Source: Dokdonella sp. (lineage in GTDB: Bacteria > Pseudomonadota > Gammaproteobacteria > Xanthomonadales > Rhodanobacteraceae). From it: 64,000 nucleotides of DNA. Numbering within the stretch: the stretch's first letter is position 1; every line of letters begins with the position of its first letter. Of this stretch, positions 11,804-49,160 are shown in pieces. The stretch lies in contig NZ_JAGIAG010000018.1 of assembly GCF_017744955.1 (NCBI RefSeq), positions 235,960 through 299,959 of the forward strand. Direction: 5' to 3'. The notes beneath the pieces were generated by a model, which was given only the letters and a program-made list of their open reading frames with translations, was not told the origin of the DNA and made no database searches. The translations under genes were made by a program, and so were the position numbers.

Positions 11804-11899
11804 GTCGCTTCCCCAGCGGGCGACAACCGCCGCGCGCGTCCGATGCGCGCACCGCGGATGGATTCAAGATGTGCGGAAAACCGCGGCATGCGCATCGAC

Positions 11900-13933
11900 C
11901 TAACCAGGCAGCTTGAAGTCCGCGACCGAACGGCGCAGGTCCGCCGCCAGCTGAGCGAGGTTGCCGATCGATTCGGCGGTCTGACTGGCGCCGACCGAGG
12001 TCTGCGAGGTGATCTCGCGGATCACGTTCATGGTCGAGGAAATGTTGGTCGCGGCCGACGACTGCTGGCGCGCGGAGCCGGAGATGTTCTGAATCAGCTC
12101 GGCGAGGTCGCTCGACACCGTTTCGATCTCGCCCAGCGCGTGGCCGGCGTCCTCGGCCAGGCGCGCGCCGGAGACCACTTCCGCGGTGGTCTGCTCCATC
12201 GAGCTGACCGCCTCGTTGGTGTCGGACTGAATCGTCTGCACCAGCGTCTCGATTCGCTTGGTCGCGCCGGAGGCGCGTTCGGCCAGTCGCTGCACTTCGT
12301 CGGCGACCACCGCGAAGCCGCGCCCCGCCTCGCCGGCGGAGGCGGCCTGGATCGCCGCGTTCAAGGCGAGGATGTTGGTCTGCTCGGCGATGTCGTTGAT
12401 CAGTTCGACGATCGAGCCGATCTCCTGCGAGGACTCGCCCAGGCGCTTGATGCGCTTGGAGGTCTCCTGGATCTGGTCGCGGATCGAGTCCATGCCCTGG
12501 ATCGTCTGGCGCACCACGGCGGCGCCGTTGGTCGCGATCTGCACCGAGCGCTGCGCCACCTCGGCGCTCTCGCCGGAGTTCTGCGACACGGTGTCGATCG
12601 AGTTCGCCATCTCGCTGATCGCGCCCGAGGCGGTGCTGATCTGGCGCGCCTGATGCTCGGCCGCGTCGGCCAGGTGCATCGCGGTGCCTTGCGTTTCCTG
12701 CGCCGCCGCCGACACCTGCACGGCGGTCTCGTTGATCGTCGTCACCAGGCTGCGCAGCGCCTCGACGGCGAAGTTGACCGAGTCCGCGATCGCGCCGGTG
12801 ATGTCCTCGGTGACCGTGGCCTTGACCGTGAGGTCGCCTTCGGCGAGCGATCCCATCTCGTCGAGCAGGCGCAGGATCGCGTCCTGGTTGCGCTGGTTCA
12901 GCTCGACCGTCTGCTGGTAGCGGCGCTGCTGGTCGCGGACCATGTTGTAGCCGAGCACGAGCAGCAGGAGCAGCGCGCCGGCGGCGGCGATCACGCCCCA
13001 GATCGGGTTCGGGAACAGGCGCTTGCGCGGCAGCTCGTCGACGCGCTGGGCGACGTTGCCGGCGTACAGCAGCACGCTCTGGCTGTCGTTGAAGCTGGCG
13101 TCGGCGGCGTCCTTGACTTCCTGCAGGTTGGTCGCCGCGTTGAGGATCGTCTTGATCGAGGTGTCGACCGCGGTCCACTGCTGCGCGACGTCGCCGACGA
13201 TCTGCTTGGCGTTGGCGTTGTCGAGCGGCTTGATGTTGAGCTCGGACGCGCCTTCGAGCAGGCCGGTGACGACGGTCTGGTACAGGCGCGCGTCGCGCTC
13301 GAGGCCCGCAGCGGAACTCTGCGTGTCCGCGCCGCCGGCCAGGATGCGGCCGACGCGGCCGCCCATGCGGTCGGCCAGCTGCATCTGGCGCGAGGTGATG
13401 TAGACCTGCGAGGCGCTCGCGTTGCGGTCGGTCAGGATGTTGACGACCTCGCTCATGCGCGCGTTGAGGCCGGACAGCTTGTCGGTGAAGTCCTTGGCGC
13501 CGGCCACCGCGCCGAGCACGAGGTCCTTGTTGTCGAGGATCTTCTTCGCGTTCGCCTGCAGCTGGGCCCAGGCCTTGTTCAGCAGCTGCAGCTCGGTGCT
13601 CACGCCGGGCTTGTCGATGTAGGCCGGCATGCCGGTCTTGTCGCCGGAATTGAGCGCCTTGACGTAGGTGTCGATGTTCGCGCGCGTGCTTTCCAGTTCC
13701 TGGAGCGCGAGTTCGTTGCCGCTGGCCGCTTCGGCGGCGTACTTGGCGAGCTGCTGCGACGAGACCTGGATCTGCGTCGTGTAGGAAGTCGCCTTGCGGT
13801 CGTCGGAACCGGCCAGATACAGAAACACGAAGTCGACGATCGCGAACACGAACAGGAATCCGAGCAGCACGAACAGCACCGTGTTCGCACCGCCGCTGCG
13901 TTCGCGACCGAGTGCACCCGCCGTAGTACTCAC
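11900..13933 (-). CDS. pilJ: Methyl-accepting chemotaxis protein PilJ
   Basis: MCP signalling hairpin [39 protein letters not shown]-terminal TM helix, periplasmic domain and HAMP. I prefer GTG 13931-13933, which is preceded by AGGGGGTGGGG. The track ORF starts at TTG 13951. Confidence 0.9.
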
Positions 13934-41006: not shown

Positions 41007-41489
41007 TCACTCGCCCGCGCCGAGAAGCTCCATCGCCATCACCAGCGCGTCCTCGCGCCCTTTCTTGGCCGGGTAGTAGTTCGGGCGGCGACCGAACTCG
41101 TTGAAGCCGATCGACTCGTACAAGGCGATCGCGCGCGGATTCGACGGCCGCACTTCGAGGAAGACGCGCTCGCTGCGATGCCAGCGCGCGAGATCGAGCA
41201 GGCGGCCGACGATGCGACGCCCGTAGCCGCGGCCCTGCTGCGACGGTGCCACGCAGACGTTCAGGATGTGCGCCTCGTTGGCGCCGGTCGACAGCACGCC
41301 GTAGCCGGCGATCGTGCTCTCCTGCACCAGCACGACGCATTCGTAGCCGGCGCGCAGACAGTCGGCGAAGATCGCGCGGCTCCACGGGAACGCGTAGGCG
41401 GCAGCCTCGAGCGCGGCGACGCGATCGAGATCCTCCGCACGCATGCGGCGGAATTCGGCCGGGGATTGATGGGGAATCGCTACCACCAC
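41007..41489 (-). CDS. rimI: Ribosomal-protein-alanine N-acetyltransferase RimI (GNAT)
   Basis: GNAT core HILNVCVAPSQQGRGYGRRIV...VFLEVRPSNPRAIALYESIGFNEFGRRPNYYP. The start is uncertain: GTG 41487-41489 gives 160 aa, ATG 41442-41444 gives 145 aa. Confidence 0.85.
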   Translation of the reverse strand: MVVAIPHQSPAEFRRMRAEDLDRVAALEAAAYAFPWSRAIFADCLRAGYECVVLVQESTIAGYGVLSTGANEAHILNVCVAPSQQGRGYGRRIVGRLLDLARWHRSERVFLEVRPSNPRAIALYESIGFNEFGRRPNYYPAKKGREDALVMAMELLGAGE

Positions 41490-41702: not shown

Positions 41703-42200
41703 TCATCCTCGCCGCTCGCCTTCGCTCAGCGTCCGCACCACGCGCCGCAGCTCGCTCCACAGTGCGCGCTTGGCCCGCGCGTCGCCGACCAGCGCCGCGA
41801 CGTCGCCGCTGACGATCCAGCCGATTTCGCGCTGGCGTTGCGCCGGCAGCAAGGCGCCGACCGCGCGCACCGGCGCTTCGCCGAACAGCACCAGCGCACG
41901 CGCCGCCTGCAGCATCGTTTCGTCGGGCGTTTCGCAAGCCGCGCAGTCGATGCGCGCGAAGCGCAGTGCGCGCGCGACGTCGGCGAGCAGCATCGCCGGC
42001 TTCGCCGTCGCCTGCCCGACCAGCAGCACACCGGCCGACGCCGCCGTGGCGACCGCCGGCTGCGCGACCACCGGCGCGCCCGGCGCCGCCGGTTCGCGCG
42101 ACGGCTCGGCGCGCATCCGCAGCGCCTCGCCGCGCGATCGCGGCACGTAGACGTCGATGCCCATTTCGGCGAGCCGGGCGAGGCTCGATTCATCCAGCAT
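41703..42200 (-). CDS. holD: DNA polymerase III psi subunit-like protein
   Basis: 165 aa from ATG 42198-42200. Directly upstream of rimI, as holD is in E. coli and pseudomonads. Blocks resemble E. coli psi as I recall it: LARLAEMGIDVYVPR vs LQQLGITQWSLR, LLADVARAL vs LVSDVLRAL, AKRALWSEL vs ARAALWQQI. Confidence 0.6.
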   Translation of the reverse strand: MLDESSLARLAEMGIDVYVPRSRGEALRMRAEPSREPAAPGAPVVAQPAVATAASAGVLLVGQATAKPAMLLADVARALRFARIDCAACETPDETMLQAARALVLFGEAPVRAVGALLPAQRQREIGWIVSGDVAALVGDARAKRALWSELRRVVRTLSEGERRG

Positions 42201-42798
42201 GGGGACTCTTCCGGCGCAGGTCCTGATGGAATTTCGCAAAGATCTCGTCGAGCGCGGCGCCGTAGGCGTCGACCGTCGTTTTCAGGTCGTCGCCGGCGGC
42301 CGGCTGCTCGGACCGATAATACTCGTCGAGCAGGGACGCGCCATCCGCCGCGTCCACGCGCATGTGCAGGCCGACCACCGCCTGGTAGCCGCCGCCCGCC
42401 GTCGGCACGCGATCGAAGCGCAGAATGGCCCCGCGAACCCGCGCCGCCTTCGCACTGACCGGCAACTCGTCGGTCACCAGCGCGGCGACGCCGGCGTCGC
42501 GCAGCAGTTCGATCAGGCGCCGCTGCAGCACGCGCGGCGGCGAGTCGGTCCACAATTGATAGTGGTACTGGCGCACTTCCTGCGCGGCCGGATCGAGCGC
42601 GTAGATCAGTGCCTGGTCGCCGTAGATGCCGCCCGCGCCGAACAGCTCGACCACCAGGGCGCCTTGCAGCAGCGGCGCCGCGTCGACCGGCAGCGGCTGC
42701 GGGCGCGGCAGGCGGTAGTAGGTGAAGTCCGGCACCGGCGGCACGTGGCAGGCGCTCAGTACGGCCGCTCCCAACAGCGCGATCCACAGGCGTTTCAT
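42190..42798 (-). CDS. ABC-type transport auxiliary lipoprotein (DUF330/PqiC-like)
   Basis: 202 aa. Lipobox MKRLWIALLGAAVLSAC. Its ATG overlaps the MCE gene stop (ATGA). Typical partner of MCE transporters. Confidence 0.75.
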   Translation of the reverse strand: MKRLWIALLGAAVLSACHVPPVPDFTYYRLPRPQPLPVDAAPLLQGALVVELFGAGGIYGDQALIYALDPAAQEVRQYHYQLWTDSPPRVLQRRLIELLRDAGVAALVTDELPVSAKAARVRGAILRFDRVPTAGGGYQAVVGLHMRVDAADGASLLDEYYRSEQPAAGDDLKTTVDAYGAALDEIFAKFHQDLRRKSPHAG

Positions 42799-43721
42799 CG
42801 CGACCCCTCGTCGAGCTTGTCCGCTTTCGGCGCGACGATCAGCCGATTCGGATGCTGGCGGATCTCGCGGCTGAATTCGTTCACGTAGCGGCTGGCGGAT
42901 TCGAGGTTGTGCATGATCACGTCCATGCGGCTGGACAAGGCCTGCAGCGTACCGGTGAGATCTTCGACCGAGCGGCGCAGGTCGGCGCGATTGTCCCTGG
43001 CGATGCCGGCGACGTCACCGAGCGCGCCGTCGAGCGTCTCGCGCGTCTTGCGCAATTCGCCGCTCAGCTTGCTGATCTCCGTCAGCGCGTGCGCGACGGC
43101 GCTGCGGTTCTCCGGCCGCAGCACGTCGTTCAGCGCGTCCGAGGCGCGGTTGACGCGTTCGAGCAGGCCGCGCGTTTCCTCCAGGATGCGCGGCGTGCTC
43201 TGGTCGAGCGCGCCGGTGATCGAATCCACGCGCTGCGACAGCGTCTGGATCAGCGGGGAAATCTGCGTGCGCGTCAGCGTGCCGACCTCGGTCGCCAGTT
43301 CGTTCATCGCGGCGAACACGTTGGCGCCTTCCTCGCCCTTCAGTTCCGCGCCGGGCGCGAGCAGGTCGCGGCTGCTGCCTTCGCGGATGCCGACCGCGAC
43401 GTCGGCGAGCAGGCCGCTCGACTGCAGCCGCGCGACGCTGTCCTTCGGGATCGGCCAGTCGCGACGGACTTCCAGCTCGACCTTGTAGCGCGTCCCGTCG
43501 GCGCCGTGCTGCGGCGTCACGGTTCCGACCTGGCCGACGCGATAGCCCTGATAGAACACCGGCGCGCCGTCGCGCAGGCCGGTCACGTCACGATAGACGA
43601 CGAGGTAGCGCTGCGTGGCGAAACCGTGGCCGCCGATCAGGGCGAGTCCGACCAGCAGCAAGGCCAGCGCGGCCAGCACGACGGTGCCGACGAGGACGTA
43701 GTTGACCGTGTCGCGTCTCAC
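42795..43721 (-). CDS. MCE/MlaD-family substrate-binding protein
   Basis: 308 aa from GTG. N-terminal TM anchor, MCE domain (YLVVYRDVTGLRDGAPVFYQGYRVGQVGTV...VARLQSSGLLADVAVGI), and a long helical C-terminus. Confidence 0.85.
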   Translation of the reverse strand: MRRDTVNYVLVGTVVLAALALLLVGLALIGGHGFATQRYLVVYRDVTGLRDGAPVFYQGYRVGQVGTVTPQHGADGTRYKVELEVRRDWPIPKDSVARLQSSGLLADVAVGIREGSSRDLLAPGAELKGEEGANVFAAMNELATEVGTLTRTQISPLIQTLSQRVDSITGALDQSTPRILEETRGLLERVNRASDALNDVLRPENRSAVAHALTEISKLSGELRKTRETLDGALGDVAGIARDNRADLRRSVEDLTGTLQALSSRMDVIMHNLESASRYVNEFSREIRQHPNRLIVAPKADKLDEGSR

Positions 43722-43782
43722 ATTCGCTCCGCATCCCCATGCGCCGTGCCGAACGATCTCGCCGCGACGCGTCGAAACTCTA

Positions 43783-44583
43783 TCAGGCTTCCTCTTCGGT
43801 GAGCCGTCGCAGATACGCGTCCGCGTCGACCTGCACCTCGCGCGGACGCCGGTTCAACAGGTCCTGGATGCGCTCGTTCGGCGCGGCGCGCACCGCCGCG
43901 GCCGGACCGGTCATCAGGACCTCGCCGGCGTCGAGCACGGTGATCGTGTCGGCGATCTTGAACGCGCTTTCCAGCTCGTGCGTGACGACGACGATGGTCA
44001 TGCGCAGCGCGTCGCGCAGGCGCAGGATCAGTTCATCGAGTTCGGCCGAAACGACCGGATCGAGTCCGGCCGACGGCTCGTCGAAGAAGAGCAGCCGCGG
44101 ATCCATCGCGATGGCCCGGGCGAGCGCCGCGCGCTTGACCATGCCGCCGGACAACTGGCTCGGCATCAGATCCTGGAAGCCGCCGAGATCGACCACCTCG
44201 AGCTTGAGGCGGCTCATGATGCGGATCGTCGACTCGTCCAGCCGCGTGTGCTCGCGCAGCGGCAGCGCGACGTTCTCGCCGACCGTCAGCGAGGTCAGCA
44301 GCGCACCGCCCTGGAACGACACCCCGATGCGCTTGCGCACCTCCTGCAGCTCGCGCTCGCCGGCGCGCGCGAGATCGACGCCGAACAGCTTCACCGTTCC
44401 CGCACCCGGCCGCTGCAGGCCGAGCAGATGCCGCAGCAACGTGCTCTTGCCGGAACCGGAGCCGCCCATGATCACGCGGATCTCGCCAGCGCCGACGCTG
44501 AAGTCGACGCCGTGCAGCACGCGGCGGCGGCCGTACCAGGCGTCGAGCCGCTCGACTTCGATCAGGGGGGTGGGAGCGTTCAT
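43783..44583 (-). CDS. MlaF-like ABC transporter ATP-binding protein
   Basis: 266 aa from ATG 44581-44583. Walker A GGSGSGKST, signature LSGGMVKR, Walker B LLFFDEPSAGLD. The track ORF start at 44727 reads through the heptamer tract and is rejected. Confidence 0.9.
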   Translation of the reverse strand: MNAPTPLIEVERLDAWYGRRRVLHGVDFSVGAGEIRVIMGGSGSGKSTLLRHLLGLQRPGAGTVKLFGVDLARAGERELQEVRKRIGVSFQGGALLTSLTVGENVALPLREHTRLDESTIRIMSRLKLEVVDLGGFQDLMPSQLSGGMVKRAALARAIAMDPRLLFFDEPSAGLDPVVSAELDELILRLRDALRMTIVVVTHELESAFKIADTITVLDAGEVLMTGPAAAVRAAPNERIQDLLNRRPREVQVDADAYLRRLTEEEA

Positions 44584-44610
44584 GGGTACGTTCTTGGATC
44601 GGTGCCGAAT

Positions 44611-44727
44611 GGTGAGCGGTGAGCGGTGAGCGGTGAGCGGTGAGCGGTGAGCGGTGAGCGGTGAGCGGGAAGAGCGTGACAGGCTTTTTTTCTTTTTCCG
44701 CTCACCGCTCACCGCTCGGCCGCTCAC
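44611..44727. repeat. (GGTGAGC)x8 perfect heptanucleotide tandem repeat plus inverted GCTCACC copies, in the mlaE-like / mlaF-like intergenic spacer
   Basis: Eight perfect GGTGAGC units at 44611-44666. An A/T-rich spacer with T7CT5 follows. Inverted units lie at 44700-44706 and 44707-44713 (perfect), with degenerate GCTCGGC and GCTCAC to 44727. Confidence 0.9.
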
Positions 44728-44731
44728 TCTT

Positions 44732-45529
44732 TCACCGATTGAGAAAGAAACTGAACACCATGTCCACCACGATGATCCAGCAAATCGACAGCACCACTGC
44801 CCGCGTGGTCGCGCGGCCGACGCCTTCGGCGCCGCCGGTGACCGAGAATCCCGTGCTGACGCCGATCAGGGTGATCAGCACCGCGAACACCAGACTCTTG
44901 GAAAGACCCTGCCAGACGTCGCCCGCATCCAGCAGCGACATCGTGTGCAGCAGGTAGGCGCCCGGCGTCACGTCCAGCGCCGGTGCGCTGTACAGGGCGG
45001 CGCCGAGGATCGCGGCGGCGTCGGCGACGATCGTCAGCACCGGCAGCATGACCAGCATCGCGAGCAGCGCCGGCGCGACCAGGTAGCGCACCGGATCGAT
45101 GCCGATCACCGAGAGCGCGTCGACTTCCTGCGACACCGACATCGAGCCGATGCGCGCGGCCAGCGCCGAGCCGGAACGGCCGGCGACCAGGATCGCGGTG
45201 ATCAGCGCACCGAATTCGCGCGTGACCGACTTGGCCACCGCGAGCACGACCTGCGACTGCGCACCGAACTCGCTCAGCGAGGCGATGAACTGGATGCCGA
45301 GCATCAAGCCGACGGTGAGGCCGAGCAGGGCGACGATCGGCAGGGCGTCGACACCGATCTCGCGCATCTGCCGCACCACCGGCGCGAGGCGCAGACGCTG
45401 GCCGACGCGCCAGCCGAACAACGCGTAGTAGAGCGCCTCGAGCAGCAGCATCGCGGCGTAGCCGACGCCGCCCAGCGCCTCCAGCGTGACGCGCCCCAGG
45501 CCCGCCAGCGGGCGCGTCAGCGCATTCAC
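44732..45529 (-). CDS. MlaE-family ABC transporter permease
   Basis: 265 aa from GTG 45527-45529, overlapping the STAS stop (GTGA). MlaE-type blocks REFGALITAILVAGRSGSALAA and GGAEGVGRATTRAVV. Confidence 0.88.
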   Translation of the reverse strand: MNALTRPLAGLGRVTLEALGGVGYAAMLLLEALYYALFGWRVGQRLRLAPVVRQMREIGVDALPIVALLGLTVGLMLGIQFIASLSEFGAQSQVVLAVAKSVTREFGALITAILVAGRSGSALAARIGSMSVSQEVDALSVIGIDPVRYLVAPALLAMLVMLPVLTIVADAAAILGAALYSAPALDVTPGAYLLHTMSLLDAGDVWQGLSKSLVFAVLITLIGVSTGFSVTGGAEGVGRATTRAVVLSICWIIVVDMVFSFFLNR

Positions 45530-45864
45530 GCGACGACCGCGTCGGCGCTCGCCACCAGCACGAACACGCGGTCGAGGCGCGCCAGTTCGAGCACCGCGCG
45601 CACGGCGTCGCTGACCGCCACCAGCACGAAGCGGCCGCTGTGCGTGCGCGCGTTCTGGAAACCCTCGACCAGGGCCGCGATGCCGGAGGAATCGATGTAG
45701 CTGACCGCCGACAGGTCGACGCCGACCGGCCGGCCGATCGCCAGCGCGTCGAGCACGGCGCGGCGCACCTCGGCCGACCAGGACAGATCGACCTCGCCGC
45801 TGAGGCGCACCAGCACGTACCCTTCGCGGTCTTCCTTGGCCACGGTGTTGAGCGGAAAGTTCAT
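45526..45864 (-). CDS. STAS-domain protein (anti-sigma-factor antagonist / MlaB-like) retaining the phosphorylatable DSSG motif
   Basis: 112 aa from ATG 45862-45864, overlapping the upstream stop (ATGA). VLVRLSGEVDLSWSAEVRRAV...VDLSAVSYIDSSGIAALVEGF, with Ser59 at the SpoIIAA Ser58-equivalent position. Confidence 0.85.
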   Translation of the reverse strand: MNFPLNTVAKEDREGYVLVRLSGEVDLSWSAEVRRAVLDALAIGRPVGVDLSAVSYIDSSGIAALVEGFQNARTHSGRFVLVAVSDAVRAVLELARLDRVFVLVASADAVVA

Positions 45865-47618
45865 GGTTCGTTGGTCTCGTCGATCGTCTCGATGCGCTTG
45901 CGCAGGATCAGCCGGTTGCCGCGCCCTTCGCGCATCGGCTCGATGCGCCATTCGTCGACGACCTGGTCGATCAGGGCGACACCGAGGCCGCCGCTGCGGC
46001 AGTCGCCGAGCGGCTGCGGCTTGATCCGCGACGGGTCGACGCAGGGTGCCGCGTCGGTCAGCTCGAAACTCAGCAGCGCGCCGTCGCGCAGCACGCGCAA
46101 GCCGATGTCGCCGCTGCAGCTCGCGCCGTAGGCGTGGCGAATGATGTTGGTGCAGGCCTCGTCGACCGCAAGGACCAGGCGATCGCGCAAGCCGGCTTCG
46201 AGGCCGAGCGCGTCGAGCGTGCCGCGCAGTGCGGCGCGGATCTCGCGCAGTTCCTCGGGCGCGGCGCGCAGCCGGCGTTCCAGCAGCACTTCCGGGGCGT
46301 CCGCGCGCGGCGCCTCGATCGTCAGCACGGTGGTGTCGTCGACCAGGCGCAGATGGCGCAGTTCGGAGAACAGCTTGCGCAGACGCGCCTCGGCCGAACC
46401 GGTCGCGTGCCGCGCGATCAGCGCGCGCACACCGGCCGAACCGATCGGCTTGCCGCTTCCGTCGCGCACGTCGGTGGCGCCGTCGGAGAACGCGTACAGC
46501 GTGCCTCCGTCGAGCTCGACATCGTGTTCGCCGAACGCGACGCCGCGCAGGATGCCGAGCGGCGGCCCTTCCGACGGATAGTCGGCGAAGACGCCGGCGC
46601 GATGCAGCAGCACCGGCGGGAAGCCGGCGCCGGCGAAACGCACGCGCCGCGCGGCGCGGTCGCAGTAGCCGACCACGGCGCAGACGAAGCGGCCGTCCTG
46701 CGTCGTTTCGCACAGCTCGTCGTTCGCCCGCGCGAGCCAGGCCGCCGGCGCGATGCCGTCCTTGCCGGCCCAGCGCAGCAGGCTGGCCGCACGCACCATC
46801 AACAGGGCGGCGTCGAGGCCCTTGCCGGAAATGTCGCCGATGACGAAGCCGATGCGTCCGTCGGCGAGTTCGAAGTAGTCGTAGAAGTCGCCGGAGATCT
46901 CGTGCGCCGGACGGTTCAGGCCGACGATCGGGAATGCGTCGCGGCGGCGTCTGGGCAGCAGGGATTTCTGCAGGCGCCGCGCGAGATCGAACTCGCGCCG
47001 CATGCGCTGCTGCTCGAGCAGGGCCTGCGCCTGGCGCGCGTTGCTGATCGCCAGCGCGATCGGCACGGAAATCGCGTCGAGCAGCTCGGCGTCGAGCGCC
47101 GACAGCGGCACGCCGTCGCGCCGATTGACGATCTCCAGTGCGCCGATCGGGCCGGCGGCGGTGCGCAGCGGCGCGCAGATCAGACTGCGCGCGACGAAGC
47201 CGTCGGCCGCGTGCCAGATCGAGGTTTCCTCTGCCGCGGTGGCGATGAGATGCGTCGCGTCGCCGGCGACCGCGCGGCCGGCCGCGCCGTGGCCGATCGC
47301 GAGCCGGGTTCCGGTCAGGTCGATCGGACCGATGCACAGCTTGCACTCGAGCAGGCGCGCCGCCGGGACGGCGTCCGCGTCGAGTCGATCGGCGTCGCCT
47401 CGATCGTCGAGCAGGAAAAACGCCGCCGCTTCGACCTGCATGAAGTCGACCACGCGATGCAGGGATTCGGTGACGGTGCGGCGCAGGTCGAGCGAGACCG
47501 CCAGTGCCTGCGACAGCTCGGCCAGAAACGCCAGCGCTTCGGAGGCGGAGGCACGCGCCGGCGCGCCATCCGCCCGCACGGACGCGGGCGGCGGCGGTAG
47601 CGCGTGCGCCAGGTTCAT
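45861..47618 (-). CDS. GAF - PP2C (SpoIIE/RsbU-type) phosphatase - RsbW-type HATPase kinase fusion protein
   Basis: 585 aa from ATG 47616-47618, overlapping the pssA stop (ATGA). GAF-like N-terminus. PP2C blocks ISGDFYDYF, GDISGKGLDAALLM, LYAFSDGATD. C-terminal kinase N-box AVDEACTNIIRHAY and G-box GGLGVALID. Confidence 0.85.
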   Translation of the reverse strand: MNLAHALPPPPASVRADGAPARASASEALAFLAELSQALAVSLDLRRTVTESLHRVVDFMQVEAAAFFLLDDRGDADRLDADAVPAARLLECKLCIGPIDLTGTRLAIGHGAAGRAVAGDATHLIATAAEETSIWHAADGFVARSLICAPLRTAAGPIGALEIVNRRDGVPLSALDAELLDAISVPIALAISNARQAQALLEQQRMRREFDLARRLQKSLLPRRRRDAFPIVGLNRPAHEISGDFYDYFELADGRIGFVIGDISGKGLDAALLMVRAASLLRWAGKDGIAPAAWLARANDELCETTQDGRFVCAVVGYCDRAARRVRFAGAGFPPVLLHRAGVFADYPSEGPPLGILRGVAFGEHDVELDGGTLYAFSDGATDVRDGSGKPIGSAGVRALIARHATGSAEARLRKLFSELRHLRLVDDTTVLTIEAPRADAPEVLLERRLRAAPEELREIRAALRGTLDALGLEAGLRDRLVLAVDEACTNIIRHAYGASCSGDIGLRVLRDGALLSFELTDAAPCVDPSRIKPQPLGDCRSGGLGVALIDQVVDEWRIEPMREGRGNRLILRKRIETIDETNEP

Positions 47619-48433
47619 TCGTCCGTCCGACCGGCTTCGCGCAGCGCGCGGCGGCTGCTGCGCTTCTGGCGCAGGCCCCACAGGGTCATGACCGGTCCCG
47701 ACAGGACGTACAGCACGGCGATCGCGAACATCACGCGCGGCGTGTCGACGGCCAGCGCGACCAGGATCAGCATCGCGATCGGAATCCAGATGAACGGCAC
47801 GCGGTCGGATTTCGGTCCGGCCTTGAAGCTGAAATAGCGGAAGCGACTCACCATCAGCAGGCCGGCGACGATCGCGATCACCGGCGTGACGAAATCGACG
47901 TCGTTCGAATCGAGGCCGAACAGGCCCTTGTCCTCGATCGCCCAGACGAAGGACATGCACAACCCGGCCGCGGCCGGGCTGGCCAGGCCCTGGAAGTAGC
48001 GCTTGTCGGCGACGCCGACCTGGGTGTTGAAGCGCGCCAGCCGCAGCGCCGCGCAGGCCGCGTAGATGAAGGCCGCGGCCCAGCCGAGCTTGCCCCAGCC
48101 CGAGCCGTACGCCTTCAGCGCCGACAGCGACCAGGTGTAGAGCACCAGCGACGGCGCCAGGCCGAAGCTGACCAGATCCGACAGCGAGTCGTACTGCACG
48201 CCAAATTCGCTCTGCGTGCCGGTCAGGCGCGCGACGCGCCCGTCGAGCCCGTCGAGCACGCCGGCGACGAAGACCGCGATCGCGGCCTCGGTGTAGCGCC
48301 CGCCGATCGCCGCGACGATCGCGTAGAAGCCGGCGAACATCGCCGCGGTGGTGAACAGGTTCGGCAGCAGATAGATGCCGCGCGGCGGCTTGCGCGTACC
48401 GGTCGAAGAATCGGCGAGGTCGGTCGGCGGCAT
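47615..48433 (-). CDS. pssA: CDP-diacylglycerol--serine O-phosphatidyltransferase
   Basis: 272 aa from ATG 48431-48433. CDP-alcohol phosphatidyltransferase motif DGLDGRVARLTGTQSEFGVQYDSLSD. Polytopic. Confidence 0.88.
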   Translation of the reverse strand: MPPTDLADSSTGTRKPPRGIYLLPNLFTTAAMFAGFYAIVAAIGGRYTEAAIAVFVAGVLDGLDGRVARLTGTQSEFGVQYDSLSDLVSFGLAPSLVLYTWSLSALKAYGSGWGKLGWAAAFIYAACAALRLARFNTQVGVADKRYFQGLASPAAAGLCMSFVWAIEDKGLFGLDSNDVDFVTPVIAIVAGLLMVSRFRYFSFKAGPKSDRVPFIWIPIAMLILVALAVDTPRVMFAIAVLYVLSGPVMTLWGLRQKRSSRRALREAGRTDE

Positions 48434-48737
48434 TGCCCGGCATCGAAAGGTGGGACGGCGGAAGTGTACCGTGATCCTGGTGGCGCAGCGCTGCGGCACC
48501 GCCGCGCACGATCGCCGCCGCAGGCGGGATCAGGCCTCACCGGCGCGATCGTTCGCCCGTGGCCGCGGAGTGACCGTCCCGCGTGACACAGCCGAAGGAC
48601 GCCGTTCCGCACGGCGCGACGAGCAAACCGCGGCAGAATGCCCGGTTTTGTAAACTCCCTGCTTGTACCGTCGCGCTGGTGATGCTATCCAGTCGCCCGC
48701 AAGGCGCCGCCCTGGGCGCCCCGCCAAGGGGGAACCG

Positions 48738-49160
48738 ATGAAACGCTTCCAGCTGGTGCTCGCGCTGCTGGTATTCGCCGCGCCGGTCGCGGCGACCGAG
48801 ATGTATTCCTGGACCGACGCCAACGGCGTCAAGCATTTTTCCGACTCGCCGCCGCCGGCGAATGTGGCCAAGGCGAAGAAGCTGAAGGTCAAGGGCGGCG
48901 TCACCAGTACGGCGAGCGACGAGGAAGAGAAGCCCGCCGACAAGAACGCCGGCCCCGCCCTCGCGGCAGCCGCCGGCTACGCGCCGGAAGACATCAAGCG
49001 CAATTGCGAAATCGCGCGCAAGAACCTCGCCAATCTCGACGCGCAGAAGCTGCCGCTCGATGCGAACGGCCAGCCGGTCGACGCCGAAGCGGCGAAGAGC
49101 CATCAAGCGCAAGTCGAGAAGACCAACCAGCAGATCAAGCTGTTCTGCGCGGCGCACTGA
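48738..49160 (+). CDS. DUF4124-type periplasmic protein
   Basis: 140 aa from ATG 48738, preceded by AAGGGGGA. Signal peptide MKRFQLVLALLVFAAPVAA followed by MYSWTDANGVKHFSDSPP. Confidence 0.75.
   Translation: MKRFQLVLALLVFAAPVAATEMYSWTDANGVKHFSDSPPPANVAKAKKLKVKGGVTSTASDEEEKPADKNAGPALAAAAGYAPEDIKRNCEIARKNLANLDAQKLPLDANGQPVDAEAAKSHQAQVEKTNQQIKLFCAAH

Follow-up and report, generated by a model that had tools for sequence, protein, structure and literature searches.

The regulation of phospholipid traffic between bacterial membranes is largely unexplained, and a locus in Dokdonella sp. raises the question of whether one lipid transporter could be controlled by phosphorylation of a small partner protein. 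The locus lies in the 64,000-nucleotide stretch of DNA that we analyzed (hereafter, the window) and comprises nine minus-strand genes that read in one direction from ~48433 to 41007, as judged from the listing of open reading frames (ORFs) and strand reading (Table 1). In this run a gene for a fused GAF-PP2C-kinase protein (the sensor) is followed by a gene for a free-standing STAS protein, and then by genes for an MlaE-family permease, an MlaF-type ATPase, an MCE protein and a lipoprotein. A sequence-only reading of the locus had proposed that the STAS protein is a phospho-switchable analogue of MlaB, the STAS subunit of the E. coli Mla transporter. Our data are consistent with the core of that proposal, although not with all of its details. 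We place at roughly 0.6 the probability that phosphorylation of Ser59 in the STAS protein, the residue that aligns with MlaB Thr52, gates the ATP-binding cassette (ABC) engine of the transporter.

The linkage between the switch genes and the transporter genes was followed across 160 loci from a one-genome-per-species scan and a metagenome scan, the flanking genes being read by tblastn with the proteins of the window and of a Dongiaceae locus as queries. The counts given here cover full-length sensor orthologues with sufficient flanking DNA. The genome and metagenome scans provided the diversity of loci; among the matches listed in our other searches (best 120), the sensor and STAS queries gave only close Dokdonella-type orthologues, the nearest being from Dokdonella and other Rhodanobacteraceae and including a 100% identical STAS protein from a Dokdonella sp. 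The STAS gene was immediately downstream of the sensor gene in 45 of 50 informative loci, and in 41 of 43 the next gene after STAS was that for MlaE, mainly at an estimated distance of between -16 and +12 nucleotides (nt). Genes for MlaF, the MCE protein and the lipoprotein came next wherever the contig extended, save for two exceptions. The whole string of pssA, sensor, STAS, MlaE, MlaF, MCE, lipoprotein, holD and rimI was intact in Rhodanobacteraceae, Tahibacter, Rudaea and related metagenome-assembled genomes, and independent gene calls in the complete 3.5-Mb genome of a relative (L165) gave the same string. Dongiaceae (Alphaproteobacteria) and several unclassified lineages were found to have a self-contained cluster of sensor, STAS, MlaE, MlaF, MCE and lipoprotein genes, without pssA, holD or rimI. 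Synteny between the sensor and transporter genes, whose absence the sequence-only reading had named as a refutation of its proposal, was thus found to hold.

The same parts were also observed in other architectures. In one type of cluster (L098 and L107) the GAF-SpoIIE phosphatase and a HATPase_c_2 kinase of 136 amino acids (aa) were encoded by separate, overlapping genes. In another (L115 and L116) the phosphatase had an HDOD domain in place of GAF, and its kinase was likewise separate. In both types, STAS, MlaE, MlaF, MCE and lipoprotein came after the phosphatase and kinase genes. A further architecture was present in Planctomycota, in which one locus (L159) was met by chance via a PP2C motif and four more (L161-L164) were reached via the MlaE of the first. 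The order of genes there was HEAT, kinase, STAS, MlaE, MlaF, a divergent MCE-like protein and an FHA-SpoIIE phosphatase, and the stand-alone kinase was 150-152 aa in length. STAS and MlaE overlapped by 4 nt in four of these five loci and were separated by a 97-nt gap in L163, where the phosphatase gene had been relocated to the upstream side and was still present. The planctomycete ATPase aligned over its full length with E. coli MlaF, including the “handshake” residues Y261, L265 and L266. A varying input domain (GAF, HDOD or FHA) next to a constant STAS-MlaEF-MCE would be expected of a switch that has the transporter as its output. We give even odds to the broader proposal that these loci belong to a widespread class of MCE transporters in Gamma- and Alphaproteobacteria and Planctomycota, the engine of which would be switched by STAS serine phosphorylation, with an RsbW-type kinase and a PP2C phosphatase dedicated to each transporter and with GAF, HDOD or FHA as exchangeable input domains. 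As a separate observation, a small HEAT-repeat protein (104-146 aa) was always encoded ahead of the planctomycete kinase by a gene that overlapped the kinase gene (L159, 3088-3528; L161-L164), and this protein was without a counterpart in the proteobacterial clusters.

The STAS protein of the window has the full length and complete C-terminus of the SpoIIAA/RsbV type. It was matched by Pfam STAS (3.2e-19) and by the anti-sigma factor antagonist superfamily model TIGR00377 (71.2 bits, cut-off 53.45), and in the PDB it matched TM1442 (1.9e-11) and SpoIIAA (3.6e-9). Its residues D58-S59-S60-G61 align with the DSSG of SpoIIAA, in which Ser58 is the phospho-site, and Ser59 is encoded by the codon at 45690-45688. 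D-S-S-G was invariant in all 14 of the STAS sequences that were compared, which spanned all of the architectures described above. We considered whether the protein might be an orthologue of MlaB and rejected this, based on a score of 26.3 bits with the mlaB_1 model NF033618 (cut-off 90) and a PDB match to MlaB at E = 0.09 only. The weak alignment with MlaB is ungapped, pairs STAS residues 42-97 with MlaB residues 35-90, and places Ser59 on Thr52. That residue is of consequence in E. coli, where MlaB is required for the stable association and assembly of MlaF with MlaE: Thr52 occupies the middle of the MlaB-MlaF interface, ATPase activity is lost in the T52A mutant, and binding to MlaF is weaker with the phosphomimetic T52E (PMC5016091, PMC7367683). 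Two groups (2016 and 2020) proposed that MlaB might be phosphoregulated, the kinase being not known (PMC5016091, PMC7367683). The STAS protein here resembles MlaB in having a conserved hydroxyl residue at the position equivalent to Thr52, but differs in that MlaB is a minimal 97-aa STAS protein whose operon is without a kinase or phosphatase. What survives of the MlaB comparison is thus an analogy, based on this residue and on the position of the gene, to which we return below, and not orthology.

Three further observations were made on the STAS family. In a representative protein library, nearly all STAS matches were singleton proteins of ~110 aa. One protein in that library (P0481, 250 aa) is a natural HATPase_c_2-STAS fusion, the kinase part of which resembles this family (RDYAGKVNP, KPGGLG) and the STAS part of which carries YIDSSG. 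A further protein (P0404, 281 aa) was considered as a natural STAS-MlaE fusion within this STAS subfamily and was rejected, as its MlaE is partial and its Arg-rich linker and tail resemble a frameshifted translation; it is probably an assembly artefact. Its STAS part has 58% identity to that of the window, and it places STAS next to mlaE in one further lineage.

The sequence-only reading had described the transporter as of the MCE/Mla type, and the MlaE, MlaF and MCE components that it named are present. The permease was matched by Pfam MlaE at 1.9e-70 and by TIGR00056 at 211.9 bits (cut-off 212.2). For the ATPase (ABC_tran 6.6e-30), the top NCBIfam model was NF008809 MlaF, which scored 195 bits where its equivalog cut-off is 441, and the best PDB match was A. 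baumannii MlaF (1.7e-55), with an alignment extending to “AYL” in the 22-residue C-terminal extension, which ends ...DAYLRRL... The LSGGM signature, typical of the ATPases of MCE systems, was invariant in the aligned ATPases. We also considered the C-terminal extension as proof of STAS binding and rejected it as non-diagnostic, because the MlaF of Veillonella has a shorter version of the extension yet no MlaB (PMC10665443). The MCE protein (MlaD 1.4e-13 and a weak Mce4_CUP1 match in Pfam; TIGR00996 MCE family, 81 bits) has an N-terminal transmembrane helix, an MCE domain and a ~190-aa helical C-terminal region, and it fails the MlaD equivalog TIGR04430 (55 against a cut-off of 135). Its length and weak Mce4_CUP1 and helical matches suggest that it may form a needle. 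The gene that follows it encodes an ABC_trans_aux lipoprotein (Pfam, 7e-10), and no MlaC-like gene was found in the operon. With MlaC, a short MlaD and an orthologue of MlaB all absent, the system is not canonical Mla. Judged by its gene content, it is of the Mpc type (an Mla-Pqi chimera), a predicted envelope-spanning lipid ABC transporter.

The Mpc system was described in Brucella abortus by Lannoy et al. in 2025 as a four-gene operon, MpcEFDA (PMC12436622). MpcE is MlaE-like with an additional N-terminal STAS domain homologous to MlaB, MpcF is the ATPase, MpcD is a 331-aa long MCE protein with a needle and MpcA is a PqiC-like lipoprotein; the bacterium relies on the system to resist envelope stress, to survive in macrophages and to maintain a normal lipid composition in its outer-membrane vesicles (PMC12436622). 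The Dokdonella locus agrees with it in the four transporter parts and in their order (MlaE-like, MlaF-like, long MCE, PqiC-like lipoprotein), with an MCE protein of similar length (~310-330 aa in the two systems) and an operon lacking MlaC and MlaA, and in both a STAS module is directly N-terminal to, or upstream of, the permease. In contrast, the STAS of Mpc is a part of MpcE, is MlaB-like (D-T-G-G) and lacks an adjacent kinase or phosphatase, whereas that of the window is free and SpoIIAA-type, and the GAF-PP2C-kinase gene lies ahead of it, as pssA also does in this lineage. The Brucella study touches on its fused STAS domain merely in passing (PMC12436622). In comparison to E. coli MlaFEDB, the locus shares the MlaE/MlaF engine, LSGGM, the C-terminal extension and an MCE protein (an MCE ring in E. 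coli), but the E. coli order is mlaFEDCB, and a short MlaD, a soluble MlaC and an outer-membrane MlaA are found there in place of the putative needle and the PqiC-like, predicted outer-membrane lipoprotein.

Other members of the Mpc type provided the argument for placing the STAS protein on the transporter. The closest plasmid-borne relatives of the permease are STAS-MlaE fusions in Ruegeria (374 aa) and Azospirillum (387 aa), followed in their operons by an ATPase, an MlaD-family protein and an ABC_trans_aux lipoprotein. The lipoprotein gene of the window has the same position as mpcA and as the gene annotated “ABC-type transport auxiliary lipoprotein” in Ruegeria and Azospirillum. The order STAS, MlaE, MlaF, MCE and lipoprotein in the window is collinear with this domain and gene order, and by a Rosetta-stone argument this collinearity suggests that the free STAS protein is a subunit of the transporter. 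Fusions of STAS to MlaE were already taken as a sign of a functional link in 2007 (PMC1810536) and in 2016 (PMC5016091). The fused STAS domains of Ruegeria and Azospirillum have D-T-G/V-G where the STAS protein of the window has D-S-S-G, and no kinase or PP2C gene was found near either Mpc-type operon when the replicons were read directly.

In the sensor, all of the domains that had been called from sequence were confirmed by Pfam and NCBIfam profiles (GAF, PP2C and RsbW-type kinase, as were STAS, MlaE, MCE and the lipoprotein elsewhere in the operon), and the motifs that had been named (ISGDFYDYF, GDISGKG, FSDGATD, EACTNIIRHAY and GGLGVALID, together with the STAS DSSG) were all found. The profile matches of the locus are highly significant and beyond chance. 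The PP2C domain has all four motifs with metal-binding Asp residues (SGDFYD, GDISGKG, SDGATD and VDDTT), and the kinase has a conserved N-box (E..N..H.Y) and G2 box (GGLG). In gamma- and alphaproteobacterial alignments these PP2C motifs, the N-box and the G2 box were invariant from Dokdonella to Marinicella and Dongiaceae. The best PDB sequence match of the sensor was Rv1364c of M. tuberculosis, a protein with PP2C and RsbW kinase domains (3KE6, 1.7e-11), which was also the best Foldseek match (5e-19) of an AlphaFold (AF2) model. The next Foldseek matches were SiaA, RssB and SpoIIE for the phosphatase domain (SiaA PP2C, TM score 0.79) and SpoIIAB and RsbW for the kinase domain (TM 0.73-0.85). 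The mean confidence of the model, expressed as pLDDT (predicted local distance difference test), was 69; the PP2C and kinase parts were good (PP2C pLDDT 80-95) and the GAF part was poor, with low values at residues 74-145. The GAF matches were barely over cut-off (GAF_3 9.5e-7, 29.7 bits; GAF 1.7e-5, 25.8 bits), with higher scores in orthologues than in the sensor of the window, and no Response_reg match was found in the sensor by Pfam. An Asp/Ala-rich insertion of ~19 residues, DDRGDADRLDADAVPAARL, is present in the GAF domain (window 47340-47400, sensor residues ~74-92). It was missing in every aligned orthologue and so is lineage-specific.

The kinase domain departs from its relatives in one respect. 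Alignment with RsbW and the stand-alone kinases showed that its G1 box is D-A-A-P and not the near-universal D-x-G, so that the RsbW-type assignment stands on profile, fold, N-box and G2 box but not on the G1 box. All fused GAF-PP2C-kinase proteins have D-x-A(-P/D) at this position; RsbW and the stand-alone kinases of the split and planctomycete clusters retain D-x-G. The substitution therefore tracks the fusion state, and it may reflect altered behaviour of the ATP lid. Kinase activity of the fused protein, as predicted from these features, is likely but not certain. The invariant phosphatase site and STAS serine argue for a real phosphorylation cycle.

Comparison with characterised partner-switching systems sets the sensor and STAS proteins in context. 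HsbR/HsbA of Pseudomonas, CrsR/CrsA of Shewanella and Rv1364c also combine PP2C and, after it, HATPase_c_2 in a single polypeptide, and a phosphorylatable STAS substrate is adjacent. They differ in their input domains, which are a receiver in HsbR and CrsR and PAS in Rv1364c, rather than GAF; the STAS of Rv1364c, unlike that of the window, is fused, and the D-x-A G1 box of the sensor is a further difference from all three. The outputs known for these three systems are RpoS, FlgM, HsbD or SigF, and no transporter is among them. In SiaABCD of P. aeruginosa and HenR/All4160 of Anabaena, an enzyme, and not transcription, is directly controlled by a small protein or domain whose phosphorylation state depends on a PP2C protein and a kinase. 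The switch proposed here would control an ABC engine in a similar way, but its target would differ from theirs, a diguanylate cyclase and an exopolysaccharide enzyme; among partner-switch-like modules with non-sigma outputs, none was found reported to act on an ABC or MCE transporter. The SpoIIE-SpoIIAA-SpoIIAB and RsbU-RsbV-RsbW systems consist of the same three protein families with the same DSSG phospho-site. In the window, by contrast, the kinase and phosphatase are fused, their genes are inside a transporter operon and no sigma factor is in or near the clusters.

Based on these comparisons, the following mechanism can be proposed. Unphosphorylated STAS protein would dock on the cytoplasmic face of MlaF/MlaE, in the manner of E. 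coli MlaB and of the fused STAS of MpcE, to give a stable, ATPase-competent complex. The RsbW-type domain of the 585-aa sensor would phosphorylate Ser59, causing the STAS protein to be released or inactivated, and the PP2C domain would reverse this modification. Ligand binding by the GAF domain may set the balance between the kinase and the phosphatase. In Xanthomonadales-type genomes, co-transcription with pssA would allow phospholipid synthesis and inter-membrane transport to be tuned jointly. The phosphorylation itself, the STAS-MlaF contact, the direction of the switch and the signal are the parts of this scheme that we infer.

Several of our observations weigh against this mechanism, and some of them would fit classical partner switching with a remote output. 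In that case the RsbW-like domain would hold a distant sigma factor, or the STAS protein would bind a remote partner, and the transporter and pssA would be adjacent as members of the same envelope-stress regulon. By sequence the STAS protein is a classical anti-sigma antagonist (71 bits with TIGR00377 versus 26 bits with the MlaB model), and by sequence and fold it and the kinase are nearest to SpoIIAA/RsbV and to SpoIIAB/RsbW/Rv1364c, respectively. The PP2C-kinase fusions that have been characterised (HsbR, CrsR and Rv1364c) are directed at sigma factors or at other targets, with RpoS, FlgM or HsbD as the outputs of the HsbR/CrsR type (PMC6482189, PMC5085249). In some lineages there is no transporter next to the sensor, whether or not STAS is present: Marinicella-type loci and L087 have pssA and the sensor without STAS or Mla at the locus, and L108 and L085 have the sensor and STAS without Mla. 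Two others (L089 and L111) carry truncated transporter clusters. In addition, the atypical G1 box in every fused form could mean weakened kinase activity, and the MlaF extension, occurring as it does in the MlaB-less Veillonella (PMC10665443), is no sign of STAS binding. A remote output is nevertheless difficult to reconcile with three findings. No sigma-factor gene was conserved in any cluster, and none was present within 10 kb in the complete genome of the relative L165. The linkage to MlaEF-MCE outlasts domain fission, exchange of the sensor domain and rearrangement across phyla. Finally, the STAS protein sits where the Mpc-type transporter has its own fused STAS. We give this alternative an outside chance.

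It is also conceivable that the kinase-like domain, and not the STAS protein, contacts and inhibits MlaF/MlaE, with the STAS protein being the antagonist that removes the kinase. The transporter would then replace the sigma factor in what is the canonical SpoIIAB/RsbW logic, a D-x-A G1 box could mark a domain that mainly binds rather than catalyses, and the conserved linkage would fit equally well. However, it is STAS, and not a GHKL domain, that is known on MlaF (PMC7367683), and natural STAS-MlaE fusions exist. The strictly conserved PP2C motifs and DSSG serine also lead to the expectation of a phosphorylation cycle on STAS, and we consider direct inhibition by the kinase domain to be improbable.

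The position of pssA suggests a further possibility, that the primary target is phospholipid synthesis, through PssA or another lipid enzyme, and that the link to the transporter is secondary. A pssA gene was upstream of the sensor in every gammaproteobacterial orthologous locus, with its stop overlapping the sensor start in all of these lineages, including the Marinicella type and L087 that are without STAS and Mla, and in L087 the sensor gene is followed by one for a PlsC-type acyltransferase. The link to pssA was, however, restricted to gammaproteobacterial lineages, as pssA is missing from the alphaproteobacterial, unclassified and planctomycete clusters that retain both switch and transporter, and an interaction between STAS and PssA is not known. 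The linkage to pssA that the sequence-only reading had drawn is thus confined to gammaproteobacterial lineages, and there it persists even where STAS and Mla are absent. Lipid synthesis as the primary target appears quite improbable. Least probable, and very unlikely, is that there is no functional link and that the genes are hitch-hiking in an operon that was inherited or transferred as a block, as the neighbouring holD-like and rimI genes probably are. Overlaps between genes are frequent in high-GC operons, and the holD-like and rimI genes are packed as tightly yet are unlikely partners. However, these two do not accompany the other genes beyond Xanthomonadales-type loci, whereas kinase, PP2C and STAS remain beside MlaEF-MCE in different phyla, through fission, rearrangement and exchange of the sensor domain.

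The loci that have the sensor without a transporter showed features of their own. In those of the Marinicella type (L016, 8139-10668; L018; L096; L105) the pssA stop and sensor start overlap by 11 nt, and a peptidase S9 gene and metG are downstream of the sensor gene. The STAS substrate of the Marinicella-type sensor would have to be encoded elsewhere. In L087 (7207-11470) the order is pssA, sensor, PlsC-type acyltransferase (PF01553, 6e-24) and alpha/beta hydrolase, so that the sensor gene is flanked by two phospholipid-synthesis genes.

Table 1. Features of the switch-transporter locus, in order of reading on the minus strand (window positions).
Feature	Positions	Strand	Remarks
pssA-like CDP-diacylglycerol-serine O-phosphatidyltransferase	47615..48433	-	272 aa; leads the co-directional run
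Sensor fusion: GAF, PP2C (SpoIIE-type), RsbW-type GHKL kinase	45861..47618	-	585 aa
GAF-like sensory domain of sensor	47040..47489	-	residues ~44-193; Pfam
PP2C phosphatase domain of sensor	46314..46862	-	residues 253-435; SpoIIE 3.5e-38
HATPase_c_2 (RsbW/SpoIIAB-type) kinase domain of sensor	45897..46268	-	residues 451-574; 2.3e-23
Free-standing STAS protein, SpoIIAA/RsbV type, DSSG	45526..45864	-	112 aa
MlaE-family ABC permease	44732..45529	-	265 aa; GTG start
mlaE-mlaF spacer with inverted heptamer arrays	44584..44731	-	148 nt; tandem repeats finder (TRF) and folding
MlaF-type ABC ATPase	43783..44583	-	266 aa; LSGGM; 22-residue C-terminal extension
Long single-MCE protein, MpcD-like	42795..43721	-	308 aa; GTG start
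PqiC/MpcA-like lipoprotein	42190..42798	-	202 aa; lipobox LSAC
holD-like gene	41703..42200	-	165 aa; DNA_III_psi below cut-off
rimI, ribosomal protein S18 alanine N-acetyltransferase	41007..41450	-	final gene of the run; start approximate

The genes of the locus had been described as tightly packed and translationally coupled, with overlaps at five junctions, and base-by-base reading showed every one of these overlaps to be correct. The pssA stop and sensor start share ATGA (47618-47615), the sensor stop and STAS start share ATGA (45864-45861), the STAS stop and mlaE start share GTGA (45529-45526), the MCE stop and lipoprotein start share ATGA (42798-42795), and the lipoprotein and holD-like genes overlap by 11 nt (42200-42190). 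Two junctions do not overlap: mlaE and mlaF are 148 nt apart, and mlaF and the MCE gene are 61 nt apart. Based on these gaps, strict translational coupling of the switch module extends only to mlaE and not through the whole transporter.

The genes at the two ends of the run were assigned with differing strength. PssA was matched by Pfam CDP-OH_P_transf (2e-18) and by the pssA model TIGR00473 at 104.8 bits, just below the cut-off of 107, and RimI by TIGR01575 (124 bits, cut-off 86). The holD-like call is based on a DNA_III_psi score (17.6 bits) under the cut-off of 22.2 and on the position of the gene beside rimI. A holD-like gene next to rimI was found only in Xanthomonadales-type loci, with none in the alphaproteobacterial or planctomycete clusters. 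The holD-like gene is probably a neighbour without a functional relation to the system, and rimI is a neighbour outside it.

Upstream of pssA, and divergent from it, is a gene for a DUF4124 protein (48663-49160, plus strand), an arrangement that is also kept in Marinicella (L016) and in L165. Because the arrangement is kept, the divergent intergenic region at 48434-48662 is probably a conserved promoter region of the operon. A promoter scan found no sigma-70-like promoter in this 70% GC DNA, and a terminator scan found terminator-like sites to be no commoner than in shuffled sequence; both scans are uninformative.

The spacer between mlaE and mlaF was found to have an unusual structure. It contains perfect heptamer arrays, with GGTGAGC repeated 8.3 times at 44611-44668 and an inverted copy repeated four times at 44698-44727, and the TRF score of 116 is the maximum in the window. 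Its transcript folds to a long hairpin (-70.9 kcal/mol, z = -8.3), which occurs once only in the 64-kb window. No Rfam family matched the hairpin at threshold, and the sub-threshold matches were only microRNA-precursor lookalikes, i.e., generic hairpins. The hairpin could be an element for mRNA processing or stability, an attenuator or the remnant of an insertion. In most orthologues the gap between mlaE and mlaF is -4 to +12 nt, and among close relatives this junction is a variable slot. Inserts of ~450-510 nt were observed there in L001 (~11840-12350), L003 and L012, an ORF of 169 aa in L102 (8636-9145), with a ClpX-type zinc-finger-like C-terminus that scored 23 bits, below cut-off, and a 205-aa Peptidase_M50-like ORF in L165 (12893-13510). 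The ~500-nt inserts of L001 and L102 were considered as instances of the heptamer repeat and rejected; that of L102 is the 169-aa ORF.

What the locus combines is known already in its parts: STAS subunits occur in Mpc and Mla transporters, fusions of PP2C and kinase have been described, and some partner-switch-like modules, such as SiaABCD or HenR/All4160, have outputs other than sigma factors. A search of full-text literature found no paper combining MlaB with partner switching, MlaE with SpoIIE and STAS, or RsbW with MlaF, and a 2023 phylogenomic survey of Mla makes no mention of kinases or phosphatases (PMC10665443). The sequence-only reading was aware of no phosphorylation-controlled MCE/Mla transporter of this architecture, and none was found in the searchable literature. 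A dedicated kinase/phosphatase pair for the STAS protein of an MCE lipid transporter, conserved across phyla, thus appears to be undescribed.

If the proposed mechanism is correct, these loci would provide the first kinase/phosphatase pair from nature that acts on an MlaB-type subunit, and the bacteria that carry them would have direct post-translational on/off control over inter-membrane phospholipid transport. In Xanthomonadales-type genomes this control would be coupled to expression of the phosphatidylserine synthase. Partner switching would be extended from sigma factors and cyclic di-GMP enzymes to an ABC transporter. Because this locus and its relatives encode the kinase, phosphatase, STAS protein and transporter together, the decade-old question of MlaB phosphoregulation becomes directly testable. 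The Mpc family would gain a regulated branch, which is relevant to envelope stress resistance and to the intracellular survival of Brucella.

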